Virus record (IMG/VR): IMGVR_UViG_3300030339_000006 | DNA length: 64,000 bases | Source: a virus | Direction: 5' to 3' (one strand) | Part shown: piece by piece, positions 10,452-49,339 of the stretch | Layout of the letters: each line of letters begins with the position of its first letter | Numbering within the stretch: the stretch's first letter is position 1 | Made by a program: the position numbers and the translations under genes | Notes under the pieces: generated by a model | What the model saw: the letters and a program-made list of their open reading frames with translations, nothing else | Databases searched by the model: none | What the model was told of the DNA's origin: nothing

Positions 10452-10524
10452 AAGACAAGTAGCTCAACTGGTTAGAGCATAATCATACCCGATTAGTGTT
10501 GGGGGTTCGAGTCCCCCCTGTCTT
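10452..10524 (+). ncRNA. tRNA-like RNA / pseudo-tRNA with 6-nt anticodon loop, no CCA
   Basis: Canonical D arm and T arm; TAATC-ATACCC-GATTA. Confidence 0.65.
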
Positions 10525-10555
10525 AGCTTTAAAATCTCCCTATTAGGAGAACTTC

Positions 10556-16979: not shown

Positions 16980-17177
16980 TTGAAACCTTACGGTCTTAAA
17001 CCCGGCGGTTCTCCCGGTTGCTCCTGTCGCGGTTGTCGTACCCGCGGGGTTCGGGAAGACCAAGTCATCCTCGTAGCGAAAGCGTTCGCTCGAAGAGAGG
17101 GTAAACGCGAAGCACGAACATGGCGGGCTGGCAGAGTGTCTATGCACTGGATTGCAAATCCAGATTACGAAGGTTAG
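16980..17177 (+). CDS. small basic Cys-containing protein (MKPYG...)
   Basis: TTG start inferred; CSCRGC, KAFARREGK; 3' end overlaps tRNA-Cys. Confidence 0.35.
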   Translation: MKPYGLKPGGSPGCSCRGCRTRGVREDQVILVAKAFARREGKREARTWRAGRVSMHWIANPDYEG

Positions 17178-17196
17178 AATCCTTCGCCTGTCTCCA
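17122..17196 (+). tRNA. tRNA-Cys(GCA)
   Basis: TT-GCA-AA loop, U73 CCA. Confidence 0.9.
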
Positions 17197-17203
17197 AATA
17201 AGC

Positions 17204-17232
17204 TTGACCCATCAGCACATTTATCGTACTAT
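17204..17232 (+). promoter_or_regulatory. sigma70-like promoter before tRNA-Trp
   Basis: TTGACC-17-TACTAT. Confidence 0.6.
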
Positions 17233-17241
17233 CTCCTCAAC

Positions 17242-17317
17242 GGGGGCTTGTTCTAGCGGCTACGATGCTGGCCTCCAAAACCATGCGACGAAGGTTCGAG
17301 TCCTTCAGCCCCTGCCA
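17242..17317 (+). tRNA. tRNA-Trp(CCA)
   Basis: CT-CCA-AA loop, GCCA. Confidence 0.8.
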
Positions 17318-17326
17318 GGAGATACG

Positions 17327-17659
17327 ATGAAACTTGTCATTTTAGAATCACCCTTTGCCCCGACGAACGGGAAGACCCTCGACGAAAACATCGCGTACGC
17401 ACGTGCCTGTGTCCGTCACTCCCTGTCCCTCGGTGAGGCACCAATCGCCAGTCACTTACTGTACACCCAAGAAGGTATCCTCGACGACTTCATTCCTGAA
17501 GAGCGTGCGTGGGGTATCGAAGCCGGTTTAGCCTGGAAGCAGGTCGCCAACGGTTCCGTCGTGTACGTCGATTTCGGCGTCTCGAAGGGGATGGAATATG
17601 GCATTCAAGCAGCCATTGCAGCCGGCCTTTCTGTAGAATACCGGAGGATTTATGCTTAA
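17327..17659 (+). CDS. nucleoside 2-deoxyribosyltransferase-like (DUF4406-related) protein
   Basis: ILESPFA, NIAYARAC, GEAPIASHLLY, VYVDFGVSKGM. Confidence 0.65.
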   Translation: MKLVILESPFAPTNGKTLDENIAYARACVRHSLSLGEAPIASHLLYTQEGILDDFIPEERAWGIEAGLAWKQVANGSVVYVDFGVSKGMEYGIQAAIAAGLSVEYRRIYA

Positions 17660-17825
17660 GTACGCTGATCTGCTCCACACCGCTGGCTTGATCACCGACG
17701 CGTTCCACGCTGACCTGCACGCTGCAGTCAAGGATCGCTCCCTGTTTCTTCTGCTGGCACTGAAACTGCTCGACGTAATCCGTCGTGTTCTTTCCAACCT
17801 GCACTCTCAGAAGGTAACCGCATGA
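17652..17825 (+). CDS. small hypothetical protein
   Basis: GGAGG RBS, coupled stop/start. Confidence 0.5.
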   Translation: MLKYADLLHTAGLITDAFHADLHAAVKDRSLFLLLALKLLDVIRRVLSNLHSQKVTA

Positions 17826-18004
17826 ACATCGAAGACCTCGTTAAATTTAAACAGATCGCCCGCCGCCTGCACACCCGTGGCGTGATCTCCCAGAACCTGT
17901 GCCTACGGATTCTCGGCCTGAAAGAACCGAAGTACCGCGTTCAGTCCTGGCTGATCTCTGCAGGATTTGCCCTGTGCAAACTCGCTCTGAAGCACTCGAA
18001 ATGA
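17822..18004 (+). CDS. small hypothetical protein
   Basis: ATGA overlaps on both sides. Confidence 0.55.
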   Translation: MNIEDLVKFKQIARRLHTRGVISQNLCLRILGLKEPKYRVQSWLISAGFALCKLALKHSK

Positions 18005-18294
18005 AGTATACCCGTAAGCCGTACGCAGTGGATGCTGTCCAGTTCAACGGACAGAATCACCTGAATATCTTCGAAGACTACTGGCCGGACTGGATCCACC
18101 ATGCCATAGCCTGCGGTGATGTACAGCTCTGCGGGGATTACTTTGAACTCTGGCGACCGGACCACACTTCCTGGGATCGCTTCGGGTTGGGCTGCTGGAT
18201 CGTTCTGGACGACGGCGCCATTATTGGCGTCACCGCCGAAGAATTCTACCGGAGATACGATCGTGTCTACAATCGAAACGCCGATAATCGATAG
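18001..18294 (+). CDS. conserved phage protein (MKY.RKP..V.AVQF family)
   Basis: MKYTRKPYAVDAVQFNG...G.WIV...F...Y. Confidence 0.6.
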   Translation: MKYTRKPYAVDAVQFNGQNHLNIFEDYWPDWIHHAIACGDVQLCGDYFELWRPDHTSWDRFGLGCWIVLDDGAIIGVTAEEFYRRYDRVYNRNADNR

Positions 18295-18517
18295 CGTATA
18301 TACAATCAAAGTGACCCGAATCAAGGACTGGCATGCCCGTCTGTTCTTAAACGGGTTGCTGGTCGATGAAATGTCGTGTAAACTCCGTAGTGATATCGGA
18401 TGGATCTGCCGTGAGATGATGCGGTGGGCCGATAAAATGGGAGGTGATAGTCATACCTCCAGTGCTCGCAGACGCCAAGGCCAAGCTGTGGGTAAAGTGA
18501 AATACCTGAGGAAATAA
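18263..18517 (+). CDS. hypothetical protein
   Basis: GTG start after GGAG; coupled. Confidence 0.5.
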   Translation: MSTIETPIIDSVYTIKVTRIKDWHARLFLNGLLVDEMSCKLRSDIGWICREMMRWADKMGGDSHTSSARRRQGQAVGKVKYLRK

Positions 18518-18519
18518 CC

Positions 18520-18858
18520 ATGTTATAGACCAAACACTGGACCTACACGTTCGTTCGTACTGATCTGCCGCTCGAGCAGATTCTCGTTCAATCCAACCAC
18601 GCTTCCCACGAAGCCGCCCTGAAGTACCCCTACACCTCTGCTGAACCTAACTCGCTGATCGTCATTGGCGTGAAGAACCGTGCTGCCCTCGAAAAGGCCA
18701 TGGCCCGCTTCGCTGCGTTCGACCCAACCCCTTTCTACGAGCCCGACTGGGAGTACGGCCTGACCGCCTTCACCACCCGTCCAGTGACCGAAGAAGAGCG
18801 TGCTGAATTCCGTAAGTATCAACTCTTCCGGAGGTCACATGTACGCAACCAATTTTGA
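18520..18858 (+). CDS. Pth2-like peptidyl-tRNA hydrolase with in-frame UAG at codon 3
   Basis: GAGG RBS, ATG-TTA-TAG then open frame YTFVRTDL...VQSNHA...LIVIGV...FYEPD...LTA. Confidence 0.75.
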
Positions 18859-19372
18859 TGACCTTCAGACCCGGATGGCCGCCACTGAGCAGACCGCCGG
18901 CGTCTCCGTTCTGGAACACGGCCACAGCGTCCACCAGCGGTACCAGGAGCTCCTTCGGGAGCTCAACCAAGGCAAGGGCAACCCGACACTCCAGAAGGTC
19001 TGGGAGAGCGTTAGAGAGCGTCTGATGGACCCCGATCTGATCTGGCGGTATCAGGTGTATCACGACTGTGGCAAACCGGCCTGTGCCCAGGACGGACACT
19101 TCCCAGATCACGCAGAGCACTCAGCGAATCAGTGGGCCCTACTCTTCCCGGAAGACCCGGTCGTCGCTGACTTGATGCGGATGGACATGCAGTTCCACTT
19201 GACGAACGCCGAGGACGCCCGGTCCTTCTGGGCACACCCGCTGGCCCCGACCCTCTACGTCACAGCCTGGGCGGAGATTCTGTCAAATGCCAGCATGTTC
19301 GGCGGAGAAGACTCCACGTCCTTCAAGATTAAGCGTAAGAAGTTAGAGCGTGCCGGGCGGGCGCTGTGGTAA
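18839..19372 (+). CDS. HD-domain phosphohydrolase
   Basis: EHG..V, YHDCGKP, HAEHSA; GGAGG RBS. Confidence 0.75.
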   Translation: MYATNFDDLQTRMAATEQTAGVSVLEHGHSVHQRYQELLRELNQGKGNPTLQKVWESVRERLMDPDLIWRYQVYHDCGKPACAQDGHFPDHAEHSANQWALLFPEDPVVADLMRMDMQFHLTNAEDARSFWAHPLAPTLYVTAWAEILSNASMFGGEDSTSFKIKRKKLERAGRALW

Positions 19373-19399
19373 AATCCTGGTATTCACAGGAGAATTATC

Positions 19400-20080
19400 A
19401 TGGTCGAAAAGAGAGACAATTTTGAAAAAGGCGTAATTGGAGCCGTCGGGGGCACTGCTGCAGCCTCCGGAGTGGCACCTCGCTTGCTGGGGTATCACGT
19501 GGTCCGCCACGGCACGAGCAACGAGAACGCCGCAAAGATCAAGAAGGAAGGGTTTAACCCTAAGATGGGTGGCAAGGGTGGGGCGGGACAGCACGCGGCG
19601 ACAGGTGACCGAGCGAAGAGGTTTAAGGAACAATCCCGAGGGAAGATTCACGTAACGAAAAACCCTTTGATCTCCCGTATGTTCGCCGGGATAACGGAGA
19701 AGCGTAATCCTAATCCCGAATCTCTCGGTGACTTGGCCGGTGGTAAGGTTCTGAAAGCCCGCGTTACTGATCAACATTACCGAACCATGCAGAAAGACCC
19801 TCACATGGGTGGCGGCAAGGCCACTGCAGCGACGACTCACCACAAGATTCCCTCACATCAGATTATCGGTGGGGCGGGGGATAAGGGGGTCAAAGGTGTA
19901 GTTAATAAGAAGACGTTGGCGAAATACTACCGCAATAAGACGAATCACGGTCGTATCGGCAGAGGTATAGCTCTCGCGGGAGTCGCTGCCACCGGTGCTC
20001 ACCAGGTCTATCAGTCCGTGAAGGAAGGATTGACCAAGAAGTCAGGATTGCAGATCCGGGCAGAAAGTTTGCTCCGGTAA
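19400..20080 (+). CDS. ART/Tpt1-fold-like protein with Gly/Ala-rich flanks (paralog of 13912)
   Basis: LLGY..V.HGTS...IKKEGF, GKIHVT, KIPSHQI. Confidence 0.6.
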   Translation: MVEKRDNFEKGVIGAVGGTAAASGVAPRLLGYHVVRHGTSNENAAKIKKEGFNPKMGGKGGAGQHAATGDRAKRFKEQSRGKIHVTKNPLISRMFAGITEKRNPNPESLGDLAGGKVLKARVTDQHYRTMQKDPHMGGGKATAATTHHKIPSHQIIGGAGDKGVKGVVNKKTLAKYYRNKTNHGRIGRGIALAGVAATGAHQVYQSVKEGLTKKSGLQIRAESLLR

Positions 20081-20109
20081 TTGACAGGTCAAGGACGACC
20101 TGATATCTT
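20081..20109 (+). promoter_or_regulatory. sigma70-like promoter driving suppressor tRNA
   Basis: TTGACA-17-TATCTT. Confidence 0.7.
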
Positions 20110-20117
20110 ACAGACAT

Positions 20118-20193
20118 GCCTGAGTAGCTGAGCGGTTGTAGCGGGAGCCTCTAAAACTCTGATACGTCGGTTCGAATCCGACCTCGGGCACCA
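20118..20193 (+). tRNA. amber suppressor tRNA (anticodon CUA)
   Basis: GCCTGAG/CTCGGGC acceptor, GGAGC-CT-CTA-AA-ACTCT, GTCGG-TTCGAAT-CCGAC, ACCA. Confidence 0.85.
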
Positions 20194-20194
20194 C

Positions 20195-20288
20195 TGATGT
20201 GTAGCTTAACGTAAAAGTGCTACGGAATCGGGGACTACCCCCTTTGACAATGGCGGATGTCCGGCACGTAAACCGGACCACATCACCA
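20195..20288 (+). ncRNA. tRNA-like RNA lacking canonical anticodon loop
   Basis: GATGTG/CACATC acceptor, GTCCGG/CCGGAC T-like arm, GGGG-ACTA-CCCC hairpin, ACCA. Confidence 0.6.
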
Positions 20289-20290
20289 CC

Positions 20291-20366
20291 GGGTGCATAG
20301 CTCAGTTGGCAGAGCGGCGGACTCTTAATCCGTAGGTCGTAGGTTCGAACCCTACTGCACCCACCA
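20291..20366 (+). tRNA. tRNA-Lys(CUU)
   Basis: CT-CTT-AA loop, ACCA. Confidence 0.92.
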
Positions 20367-20426
20367 CTTCCCCTTTTGCGAATTCCTTGGTATAATAGAC
20401 ATACCGTCCATACCAGGAGTTTTTCC

Positions 20427-20621
20427 ATGAAAGATATTATCGGTAATACCCTCGAAATCGGCGACCGCGTCGTGACCACTGTCAGTGGCTACGAAGAATT
20501 ACAGGTCCGCTACGTTCACAGCTTCACCCCTAAGAAAGTCCGTCTGTCCGCCCACCCGAACCTTGAGTTCACTTCCGATCTTAAATCCCCTCGTCAACTC
20601 GTGAAGGTGCCGCATGTTTGA
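20427..20621 (+). CDS. small SH3/KOW-like protein (D..G..L.VGD.V family)
   Basis: MKDIIGNTLEIGDRVV. Confidence 0.7.
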   Translation: MKDIIGNTLEIGDRVVTTVSGYEELQVRYVHSFTPKKVRLSAHPNLEFTSDLKSPRQLVKVPHV

Positions 20622-20808
20622 TTTCCGTAAGCAGGAACTGGCGGTTGGGGACACGGTAGCCCTTTTTTGGTGCGACGGCCAGTTGGCCGAAGGGGTCATC
20701 GTGCAGATTCGGGGCAACTGGGCCAAACTCGACGTTACTTATCACGGCTCGGTCTCTCGCAGTAAGTGGAAGGCCGGCTACACCATGGTTAAACTGGAGG
20801 CAAAATGA
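20614..20808 (+). CDS. small SH3/KOW-like protein
   Basis: MFDFRKQELAVGDTV. Confidence 0.7.
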   Translation: MFDFRKQELAVGDTVALFWCDGQLAEGVIVQIRGNWAKLDVTYHGSVSRSKWKAGYTMVKLEAK

Positions 20809-21002
20809 AAGATCAATTCGGTCGTGAGCTCAAACTCGGCGACATGGTCGTCTTCTGCGGGATTCGTCACCGCTCGGCGTACCTCTACCGCGGCATCATT
20901 GAGAAAGTCGAAGGCAAGTCCCTGACGATCTTCTGTGGTGACCGCGAGTCTTCCCGTAAACGCTTCAACCGCCACTGTGAGGACGTTTCCCTTGATCGAT
21001 AG
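20805..21002 (+). CDS. small SH3/KOW-like protein
   Basis: MKDQFGRELKLGDMV. Confidence 0.7.
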   Translation: MKDQFGRELKLGDMVVFCGIRHRSAYLYRGIIEKVEGKSLTIFCGDRESSRKRFNRHCEDVSLDR

Positions 21003-21192
21003 ATTCGGCAATACTCTGTCCGTCGGTGACACGGTGGTTTACTTCTCAACGGGCTATGCCCCGACTGCCCGCGTTGGCATGATCATCGAGTTCGCGAGAG
21101 GGTCAGTGAAGATCAAGACCACTTCTCATCGTGAAGTCCTTCGGTCGGCAGGCTCGCTCATCCACTACACAGGAATCGCTAATGGTCTTTAA
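20992..21192 (+). CDS. small SH3/KOW-like protein
   Basis: TTG start; IDRFGNTLSVGDTV. Confidence 0.65.
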   Translation: MIDRFGNTLSVGDTVVYFSTGYAPTARVGMIIEFARGSVKIKTTSHREVLRSAGSLIHYTGIANGL

Positions 21193-21397
21193 CGGCGTCG
21201 ACATCCTCGATAAATCCGAGTTGGTCAAAGGCCGGTCCTACAAGGGCGACTGCCGGAACGCCAGTGAGGCCGTCTGGAACGGGCGTCTGTTTGTTTACAA
21301 GCGGACCAAGTTCGGTGACACCTACGATGAAACCATCGAACACCCGGAAGATGACTGCGGGTATGATCTCTTCCTCCCCCGGAGGGATTTGAATTGA
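21182..21397 (+). CDS. hypothetical protein
   Basis: Y.G.CRNA..A.WNG..F.Y.RTKFG conserved-looking phage motif. Confidence 0.6.
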   Translation: MVFNGVDILDKSELVKGRSYKGDCRNASEAVWNGRLFVYKRTKFGDTYDETIEHPEDDCGYDLFLPRRDLN

Positions 21398-21591
21398 AAG
21401 ACTTAACCGGAATGGAGATTCACGTCGGTGATACCGTGGTGGCCAGCCTAGATGGCACCGACTCCCGGATTCGCCTTTGCACCGTCATCGGCTTCACCGC
21501 CCAGAAAGTTAGAGTTCAATCCCGTTGGAGGGGCAATGAGCGTGGCGAGCTGAAAGACCCTGGTAACCTCATTATCATGAGGGCAATGTGA
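21394..21591 (+). CDS. small SH3/KOW-like protein
   Basis: KDLTGMEIHVGDTV. Confidence 0.65.
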   Translation: MKDLTGMEIHVGDTVVASLDGTDSRIRLCTVIGFTAQKVRVQSRWRGNERGELKDPGNLIIMRAM

Positions 21592-21655
21592 GTACATTCT
21601 TGCTGTGGCTTAGCCTGCAGAAACACCCTAAACCTTTACTCAATAAGGAAACACC

Positions 21656-21841
21656 ATGTTTGATGCTCGAGGAAATCCCCTGTCGTTGGCCGACTCTGTC
21701 GTCTTCGCGAAAAATGACGGGGAGTTAGGCTTCGGCCACATTACCGGTTTTGACGAGTATGGTCACTACGCCTTTATCCACACGGAGAAAGACCGCAAGA
21801 CCAAAAAGAATAACCGTGAGCTACTGAAGGTGCCGAAATGA
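21656..21841 (+). CDS. small SH3/KOW-like protein
   Basis: MFDARGNPLSLADSV. Confidence 0.65.
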   Translation: MFDARGNPLSLADSVVFAKNDGELGFGHITGFDEYGHYAFIHTEKDRKTKKNNRELLKVPK

Positions 21842-22047
21842 AGGACATTAATGGCAATGAAGTCCACGTCGGTTCCGTTGTCGTGACCGGCAGATCGGGA
21901 GGGTCCATCAGCCTGGGTTTCGGTATCGTGACGTCCATCGGTAAAAAGATGGTCACGTTAGACCGACTACCCCCAACAGACTCCCGTTACCGCCACTGCG
22001 TTTACCCCGGATCTCGCCGTTACGGAGATGATGTAGTCGTTCTATAA
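21838..22047 (+). CDS. small SH3/KOW-like protein
   Basis: MKDINGNEVHVGSVV. Confidence 0.65.
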   Translation: MKDINGNEVHVGSVVVTGRSGGSISLGFGIVTSIGKKMVTLDRLPPTDSRYRHCVYPGSRRYGDDVVVL

Positions 22048-48980: not shown

Positions 48981-49339
48981 TGACAACAAAAGTGGTTCTG
49001 GAATTGACGGTCAAGGAGACGTCAGTTCGTATCCGAGGATATGGGGAAGAGGCGATCATGGAGCACTCTCTGACTCACCCGCTGATGCAAGGCTCGCTGA
49101 AGTTTCAGTGTAAGCGAAAAGATCTGGCCGACGTACTGAAAGAATTTGCGGAGGGTTTGGACTCTCGCAAGAAAGATTTCGAAGGGGATGTTTCGTTGGT
49201 AGATGTGGGAAATGAGCTGGCCCGTAGCTCAACCGGCATCCCTTTGAGTGAAAAAGAGCAGAATGAACTGAAGACGTTACTCGACGGTAAATCCGCTGTA
49301 GAACAACGAGATGGTGCATTCCGAATAAAAATCAGTTAG
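48977..49339 (+). CDS. hypothetical protein
   Basis: GGAG RBS, coupled. Confidence 0.55.
   Translation: MMTTKVVLELTVKETSVRIRGYGEEAIMEHSLTHPLMQGSLKFQCKRKDLADVLKEFAEGLDSRKKDFEGDVSLVDVGNELARSSTGIPLSEKEQNELKTLLDGKSAVEQRDGAFRIKIS

Follow-up and report, generated by a model that had tools for sequence, protein, structure and literature searches.

What is an in-frame amber codon doing at the third position of a phage gene whose reading frame then runs on uninterrupted, and what reads it? The question arises from a locus in a 64,000-nucleotide stretch of viral DNA (IMG/VR record IMGVR_UViG_3300030339_000006; hereafter the window, meaning the whole stretch analysed), a tRNA-rich sequence in which ARAGORN found 24 tRNA genes. 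The first-pass annotation had described a GAGG motif, then ATG TTA TAG ACC and 109 open codons, and re-reading the sequence bore this out: ATG occupies 18520-18522, TTA 18523-18525, TAG 18526-18528 and ACC 18529-18531, after which the frame stays open for 109 codons past the TAG (Table 1). The spacing of the GAGG suits ATG 18520 as the initiation codon and not the TAG, which lies 14 nt away, and the preceding ORF is in a different frame and stops at TAA 18515-18517. The earliest ATG, GTG or TTG 3' of the TAG is GTG 18670 (ORF 18670..18858), 47 codons on; the motif YTFVRTDL...VQSNHA precedes this first alternative start, as had been noted at first pass.

Table 1. Features of the gated locus in the window
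Feature	Position	Strand	Details	Basis
Shine-Dalgarno-like GAGG	18508..18511	+	8 nt 5' of ATG 18520	Read directly from sequence
Gate ATG TTA TAG	18520..18528	+	Followed by A at 18529	Same opening in homologous genes
Pth2-fold protein gene	18520..18858	+	112 codons including TAG; TGA at 18856-18858	Model, Foldseek, profile, dN/dS
GGAGG ribosome-binding site of HD-like gene	18829..18833	+	Inside 3' end of Pth2-like ORF	Junction sequence
HD-fold partner gene	18839..19372	+	177 aa; first 20 nt overlap end of Pth2-like ORF	phrog_14850 (5e-55); model
tRNA, anticodon CUA (amber suppressor), elongator type	20118..20193	+		ARAGORN; alignment with CUA tRNAs of 5 other phages; identity analysis

A Pth2-like fold encoded across the amber codon

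The AlphaFold2 model of the protein read through the TAG reached a pLDDT of 93.9, and in a Foldseek search of the PDB ranks 1-14 were all Pth2 or Pth2-like structures (1wn2, 2zv3, 1q7s, 3erj, 1xty, 2gax; TM 0.61-0.70). A profile of the family matched Pth2 chains in the PDB at values from 7e-6 (24bt_A) to 9e-3. Weak matches to PF01981 were found for 30 of 42 relatives, the best at 1.3e-7; the window protein itself had no Pfam match at E up to 1 and did not reach the PTH2 threshold. In a HMMER alignment to 2zv3, the motifs R-x-D-L and Q-x-x-H-A are common to both proteins. The catalytic residues reported for Sulfolobus solfataricus Pth2 are Lys, Asp and Thr; in the same alignment the Pth2 Lys corresponds to Gln20, the Asp to a nearly invariant Glu74 and the Thr to a variable position. 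We therefore class the gated protein as Pth2-like and do not assign it to PF01981. Peptidyl-tRNA hydrolase activity, as supposed at first pass, is putative: the predicted fold is that of Pth2, but the Pfam PTH2 threshold is missed and a Gln takes the place of the Pth2 Lys.

Megablast of window positions 17000-21000 against the phage collection returned a tRNA-Lys match only, with no close DNA relative there. Two other features of this neighbourhood were recorded. The gene at 17327-17659, directly 3' of a tRNA-Trp gene, has matches to DUF7768 (5e-26) and to a PHROG with the annotation nucleoside 2-deoxyribosyltransferase. Positions 20376-22047, flanked by tRNA-Lys(ctt) and tRNA-Ile, hold about seven tandem paralogous small ORFs (60-85 aa, motif G-x-x-L-x-x-G-D-x-V-V), with a counterpart of eight ORFs (gp74c-gp81c) in Salmonella phage Arash.

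Conservation of the opening and of the frame behind it

A recent nonsense mutation, with a sense codon at this position in homologues, was a doubt attached to the locus from the start, and we looked for such codons by tblastn and by reading the DNA of each homologue. The read-through translation, searched against 50,697 phage records, matched 28, and two further tblastn queries raised the matching records to 45. The homologues keep the TAG: ATG-x(-x)-TAG opens the homologous gene in 10 divergent phage lineages, among them the Arash-like phages, Mimas/Eneladusvirus, ME3, RsoM2USA, the XacN1 group, pT24 and three huge uncultured phages, and the TAG is kept in at least 20 independently sequenced genomes. 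Salmonella phage Arash, 87.5% identical, opens with ATG CTG TAG AAC (ML*N; the window, ML*T), an opening retained in five Arash-like IMG/VR contigs (L021-L025). Further openings are ATG TCT CAC TAG ATT (MSH*I) in Yersinia phage fHe-Yen9-04, ATG GCA CAA TAG AAT (MAQ*N) in Cronobacter phage GAP32 and Pectobacterium phage CBB, ATG GCT CAC TAG AAT (MAH*N) in XbC2 and Kaldavass, ATG ACT TAG ATT (MT*I) in Acinetobacter phage ME3 and ATG TTG TAG ATT (ML*I) in Ralstonia phage RsoM2USA. The uncultured phages follow the same form, with ATG ACT CAC TAG GTT (MTH*V) in the 595-kb LR756511, ATG AAG TAG ATT (MK*I) in LR756500 and ATG TCG TAG ATT (MS*I) in LR756501, where another in-frame TAG interrupts the Pth2-like gene near codon 42. 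The base 3' of the TAG is A in 9 of the 10 lineages. Compared across these genomes, the ATG-x(-x)-TAG opening is conserved in a way that is no chance arrangement.

Public annotation largely hides the family, the gene being left out or started at an internal codon in nearly all matching records. A search for homologous proteins of near-equal length returned a single protein, because gene callers truncate the family, and a related-locus search with the single window protein recovered Arash-like contigs only. One metagenome representative begins MLQI and is recorded as translated with TAG=Q; many others start M-x(1-3)-Q-[I/T/V].

The frame behind the TAG is under coding constraint. In comparisons of the window with four Arash-like relatives, dN/dS was 0.10-0.22 over codons 4-50, which are reachable only via the TAG, and 0.08-0.12 over the remainder of the gene; by this measure, codons 4-50 are under purifying selection. 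They include the family-invariant R13, Q24 and H27 and the nearly invariant Y9, D15 and V23, and strand beta-1 and helix alpha-1 of the model are likewise encoded before GTG 18670. No start codon 3' of the TAG is conserved across homologues, the codon there being ACC, AAC, ATT, AAT or GTT. The proposal that the full-length protein requires decoding of UAG thus gains support from constraint on codons that no conventional start can reach, R13, D15, Q24, H27 and beta-1 all preceding any start. The in-frame stop is thus conserved in 10 lineages and, in the Arash-like comparisons, the codons behind it are constrained, the pattern by which suppressor-type recoding is recognized.

These comparisons also bear on the most ordinary account of such a codon, that the gene is a pseudogene or the TAG a sequencing error. 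That is the usual reading of a stop at codon 3, and the omission or truncation of the gene in public annotations fits it. Its retention in so many independently sequenced genomes, with dN/dS of about 0.1 downstream, nevertheless makes sequencing error untenable, and we give this account, refuted by the comparative data, practically no weight. The sequence comparisons rule out both an error and a recent mutation as the origin of the TAG.

The HD-fold partner and the extent of the gate

The Pth2-like gene overlaps a second gene whose ribosome-binding site it contains (Table 1). The AlphaFold2 model of the second protein reached a pLDDT of 96.5, and its best structural match was the C-terminal domain (residues 250-444) of the 'tRNA processing enzyme' 3wfo-3wfs, with Z 14.4 and an rmsd of 2.9 Å over 156 residues (VIA-align). 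Next came the HD domain of GlyRS beta (Z 11.8) and PhnZ, PPX, YfbR and Rel (Z 8-10). A Pfam search with this protein gave no match, the HD model included; the HD fold and the H...HD...D metal-binding motif are both present, with H27, H75, D76, H91, D116 and H120 invariant. Complex prediction for the HD-like and Pth2-like proteins scored 0.00, which gives no verdict either way on binding.

In Arash-like phages, Mimas/Eneladusvirus and ME3 the Pth2-like gene is followed by an HD-like homologue; in RsoM2USA the homologue lies one gene further downstream and has a gated opening of its own, ATG AAA TCG TAG ATC (MKS*I). In the XacN1 group the two domains are fused in the order HD-Pth2, opening with ATG AAG TAG ACC (MK*T) in XacN1 and CM1 and ATG AAG AAG TAG AAC (MKK*N) in Xoo-sp13; Tenacibaculum phage pT24 carries the reverse fusion, Pth2-HD, opening with ATG AAA TAG ATA (MK*I). 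Because fusions of both orders carry it, the gate marks the 5' end of the unit irrespective of which domain leads, and on this comparison it goes with the cassette and not with a particular domain. The first-pass annotation had taken the gated Pth-like gene as the unit; the gated gene stands, but the HD-like neighbour belongs to the same unit, a cassette of two genes, and in fusions the gate falls on the leading domain.

In five Mimas/Eneladus phages a further TAG is conserved within the HD-like gene, at codon 47; the base after it is G, and it aligns with a Lys of the window protein. Owing to this codon, annotators record two ORFs, one of 46 aa and one of about 103 aa, in place of a single gene. 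The corresponding loci are L003:1818-2384, L002:1818-2384 and L029-L031 from position 718 onward.

The internal TAG codons matter for a further alternative, in which the ATG and its early stop form a separate regulatory mini-ORF, either a bar-type minigene or a coupling device, and translation of the enzyme begins further on, at an internal or non-canonical start codon. The opening has the same form as lambda bar minigenes, an in-frame ATG or ATT occurs soon after the TAG in some lineages, and annotators do put starts downstream. In XacN1, Xoo-sp13, the RsoM2USA HD-like gene and the GAP32 candidate at 311451 (described below), an in-frame ATG lies 4-26 codons past the TAG, and an upstream mini-ORF could operate there. 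Against a general role, however, the post-TAG start codon is not conserved; the window's first ATG, GTG or TTG comes only after beta-1, alpha-1, R13, D15, Q24 and H27; the post-TAG ATG of XacN1 is absent in CM1; and the TAGs at codon 47 of the HD-like gene and codon 42 in LR756501 cannot be mini-ORFs. We therefore regard a mini-ORF as a very unlikely explanation of the family as a whole.

Genome-wide or regional use of genetic code 15 (TAG = Gln), with this gene as one recoded gene among many, would also make the TAG sense. Metagenome gene callers already read some homologues with TAG=Q, and phages that are recoded and carry suppressor tRNAs have been described (preprint 10.1101/2021.08.26.457843). 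The window gives a different picture: among long ORFs with a single interrupting stop (at least 100 codons on each side) there were 1 TAG, 7 TGA and 4 TAA cases, with no enrichment of TAG, and a crude set of 102 ORFs ends in TAA (57), TGA (34) and TAG (about 11). We also scanned three complete genomes for a ribosome-binding site, ATG, 1-3 codons and a stop, after which the frame had to remain open for 80 codons or more and contain no early start. The known gated gene was the only TAG case in Arash, and GAP32 had three TAG cases versus zero with TAA or TGA. Table 11, moreover, serves for the ordinary annotation of these phages. Taken over its full length, the window shows no TAG recoding, with no code 15 reassignment either genome-wide or block-wise, and code 15 is a highly improbable account of the gene. 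A tblastn screen of the window against Arash for other stop-spanning conservation was swamped by off-frame nucleotide similarity.

One scan candidate in GAP32, at 311451 (L014:952-1362; phrog_22448), opens with ATG CTA TAG AAT. It is conserved in Yen9-04 (L010:19631 onward), as ATG ATG CTA TAG AAA, and conservation of the pair extends through the 26 residues that separate the TAG from the annotated internal Met, which makes it a possible third amber-gated gene. By sequence, the set of gated genes in jumbo phages may be slightly larger than the cassette, including this phrog_22448 candidate.

CUA tRNAs and the proposed gate

The window encodes a candidate reader of the amber codon, a tRNA with anticodon CUA located 1.3 kb downstream of the gated gene. 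It has the anticodon loop CUCUAAA, a G1-C72 pair, discriminator A73 and an encoded CCA, and is without initiator features; the same loop is common to all 17 distinct CUA tRNAs, which are of elongator character. After locating tRNAs in each record with Rfam RF00005 and running those regions through ARAGORN, we found a CUA tRNA in 18 of 18 gated genomes checked (the window, Arash, L021-L025, Yen9-04, GAP32, ME3, RsoM2USA, LR756511, XacN1, Xoo-sp13, CM1, pT24, LR756500 and LR756501) and in 0 of 4 ungated ones, with no discordant case; the ungated set is small and its homologues divergent, such that lineage effects are possible. Metagenome contigs with homologues, at 1-5 kb too short, were left out of this count. 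The four phages with ungated homologues and no CUA tRNA are RaK2 (8 tRNAs), Hallingskeid (7), Aeromonas phage Ahp1 (27) and avDM6 (17), and their existence implies that the Pth2-like enzyme is not tied to the suppressor alone. The link between gene and phage CUA tRNA drawn at first pass thus holds as complete co-occurrence. The tRNA is also often close to the gated gene, about 0.4 kb upstream in ME3 (which has only 4 tRNAs), 2.6 kb upstream in pT24 (3-4 tRNAs) and at 1-3 kb in most of the others. XacN1 has two CUA tRNAs.

Several further tRNA genes deserve record. LR756501, a 735-kb uncultured phage, has two tandem CUA tRNAs 2 kb downstream of its two-TAG Pth2-like gene (record 688168-690739, L064). 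The CUA tRNA of Arash (record 49176-49247; L001:4319-4390) is labelled tRNA-Phe in GenBank and has anticodon CTA by ARAGORN. Beside the CUA tRNA, a tRNA with anticodon UUA (ochre suppressor) occurs in two phages, at L022:15147-15225 and in CM1 (L041:9612-9686). Window positions 10452-10525 hold a tRNA-like gene with an abnormal anticodon loop and no ARAGORN assignment; relatives keep it (L024:2754-2830, L025:2704-2780), and in L023:2238-2313 it has the four-base anticodon caaa.

An initiator tRNA that would make UAG itself the start codon was considered and rejected. The CUA tRNAs have G1-C72 and are without the three G-C pairs in the anticodon stem; the spacing of the ribosome-binding site suits ATG, and internal TAG codons occur.

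As to the residue inserted, the tRNA bodies closest to the CUA tRNA are those for Lys and Arg (70-82% identity), and in alignments of homologues the residue opposite a gate or internal TAG is Lys in one pair and Glu in a second. Lys is at best a weak guess from these alignments.

The co-occurrence also weighs on a simpler reading, a leaky-stop attenuator that involves no phage tRNA, in which host near-cognate tRNAs would read UAG-A rarely and expression would be very low. UAG-A is a weak termination context as a matter of general knowledge, and a stop at codon 3 makes failure cheap. This reading does not, however, account for the presence of a CUA tRNA in every gated genome and its absence from every ungated one, or for its retention near the gene in ME3 and pT24, which have almost no other tRNAs; and a weak ribosome-binding site would suffice for low expression. 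We consider a leaky stop of this kind very improbable.

We consider it likely, on the combined evidence, that the Pth2-fold gene makes up a cassette of tRNA-end enzymes together with the HD-fold gene that overlaps it, and that the amber codon at position 3 gates translation of this cassette via the phage CUA tRNA. Ribosomes would initiate at ATG 18520 and reach UAG two codons later, where the full protein would be made only if the phage CUA tRNA decodes UAG against host RF1; were RF1 to win, a dipeptide would be released. Decoding would fall to the phage tRNA and not to host near-cognate tRNAs, and it is probably the phage's own tRNA that unlocks the gene. An A after UAG favours suppression and makes for weak termination, and very short nascent peptides are poor release substrates; the UAG-A context and the very short nascent peptide would both favour suppression over release here. 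The Pth2 fold and the match of the HD-like protein to a tRNA processing enzyme lead us to infer tRNA 3' ends as the substrate of the cassette, the predicted activities being hydrolysis of esters for the Pth2-like protein and of phosphoesters for the HD-like protein. Across the genomes compared, the gate, the tRNA and the coding constraint spanning the gate are all conserved.

Three candidate purposes can be put forward for such an arrangement. Enzyme output could follow how much charged phage tRNA there is in relation to RF1; the gate could provide feedback on suppression itself; or it could act as a 'private key' that silences the cassette outside infections expressing the phage tRNAs. On the self-sensing translation-stress circuit envisaged at first pass, with its bar-type drop-off and sensing of RF1, the comparisons speak neither for nor against. 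As a counterweight, with about 11 of the 102 crude window ORFs still ending in TAG, strong suppression would cost the phage.

A gate of this kind would resemble several known systems in part. The closest published concept is the recoding of whole genomes by means of suppressor tRNAs (preprint 10.1101/2021.08.26.457843): code 15 phages reassign TAG to Gln and carry suppressor tRNAs, with a proposed role in timing late and lysis genes (Borges et al., same preprint; validation PMC9523058). In both cases a phage CUA tRNA would make an in-frame TAG sense, so that expression depends on phage decoding machinery. Unlike the recoded phages, however, the phages described here use the standard code and confine the TAG to a small cassette (1-3 genes), with codon 3-4 as its position in almost every case; what is gated are predicted tRNA-related enzymes encoded in a tRNA region, not structural or lysis genes. 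The gate shares with prfB (RF2) an early in-frame stop in a translation-related gene, with output set by competition at that stop, but prfB uses a +1 frameshift and its product reads the stop, while the decoding proposed here is in frame and by a tRNA, and any feedback of the product on it would be hypothetical. Lambda bar minigenes, with their Pth-limited drop-off, have the same succession of ribosome-binding site, ATG, 1-2 codons and stop, and likewise belong to a peptidyl-tRNA hydrolase context. Bar minigenes stand alone, whereas here the frame runs on to encode a protein that is under purifying selection, and the stop, invariably TAG, is paired with a CUA tRNA. Synthetic amber-suppressor gates such as the leak dampener (PMC7969014) also combine a suppressor tRNA with an early TAG into an AND or feed-forward gate; those are engineered, and the gated phage cassette would be a natural, ancient counterpart.

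PTH2 genes in jumbo phages have already been recorded (Iyer et al. 2021, PMC7824862), in a paper that mentions no amber codon, no link to a suppressor tRNA (the word 'suppressor' occurs 0 times) and no HD partner. The XacN1 paper reported two CUA tRNAs whose targets could not be found (PMC5852040), a search that failed because of the two-codon leader before the TAG. In the literature searched, we found no published description of the amber gate.

These findings give amber suppressor tRNAs of standard-code phages, so far without a known target (PMC5852040), a conserved natural target, and the proposed target is directly testable in cultured phage-host pairs. In public annotation the gated genes are missing or cut short for more than 20 phage genomes, and Pth2-fold and HD-fold proteins are linked via gene fusions in both orders. 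More speculatively, the orphan CUA tRNAs of many tRNA-rich phages with the standard code might serve mainly as private keys for a few amber-gated tRNA-end enzymes, the Pth2-like and HD-like proteins and perhaps phrog_22448, in a circuit that measures charged phage tRNA against RF1, adjusts enzyme output to match and might be the evolutionary seed of full TAG recoding; we offer this broader view tentatively and think it rather doubtful. The cassette would be a minimal natural example of codon-level gene gating, and it may represent a first step towards whole-genome stop-codon recoding.
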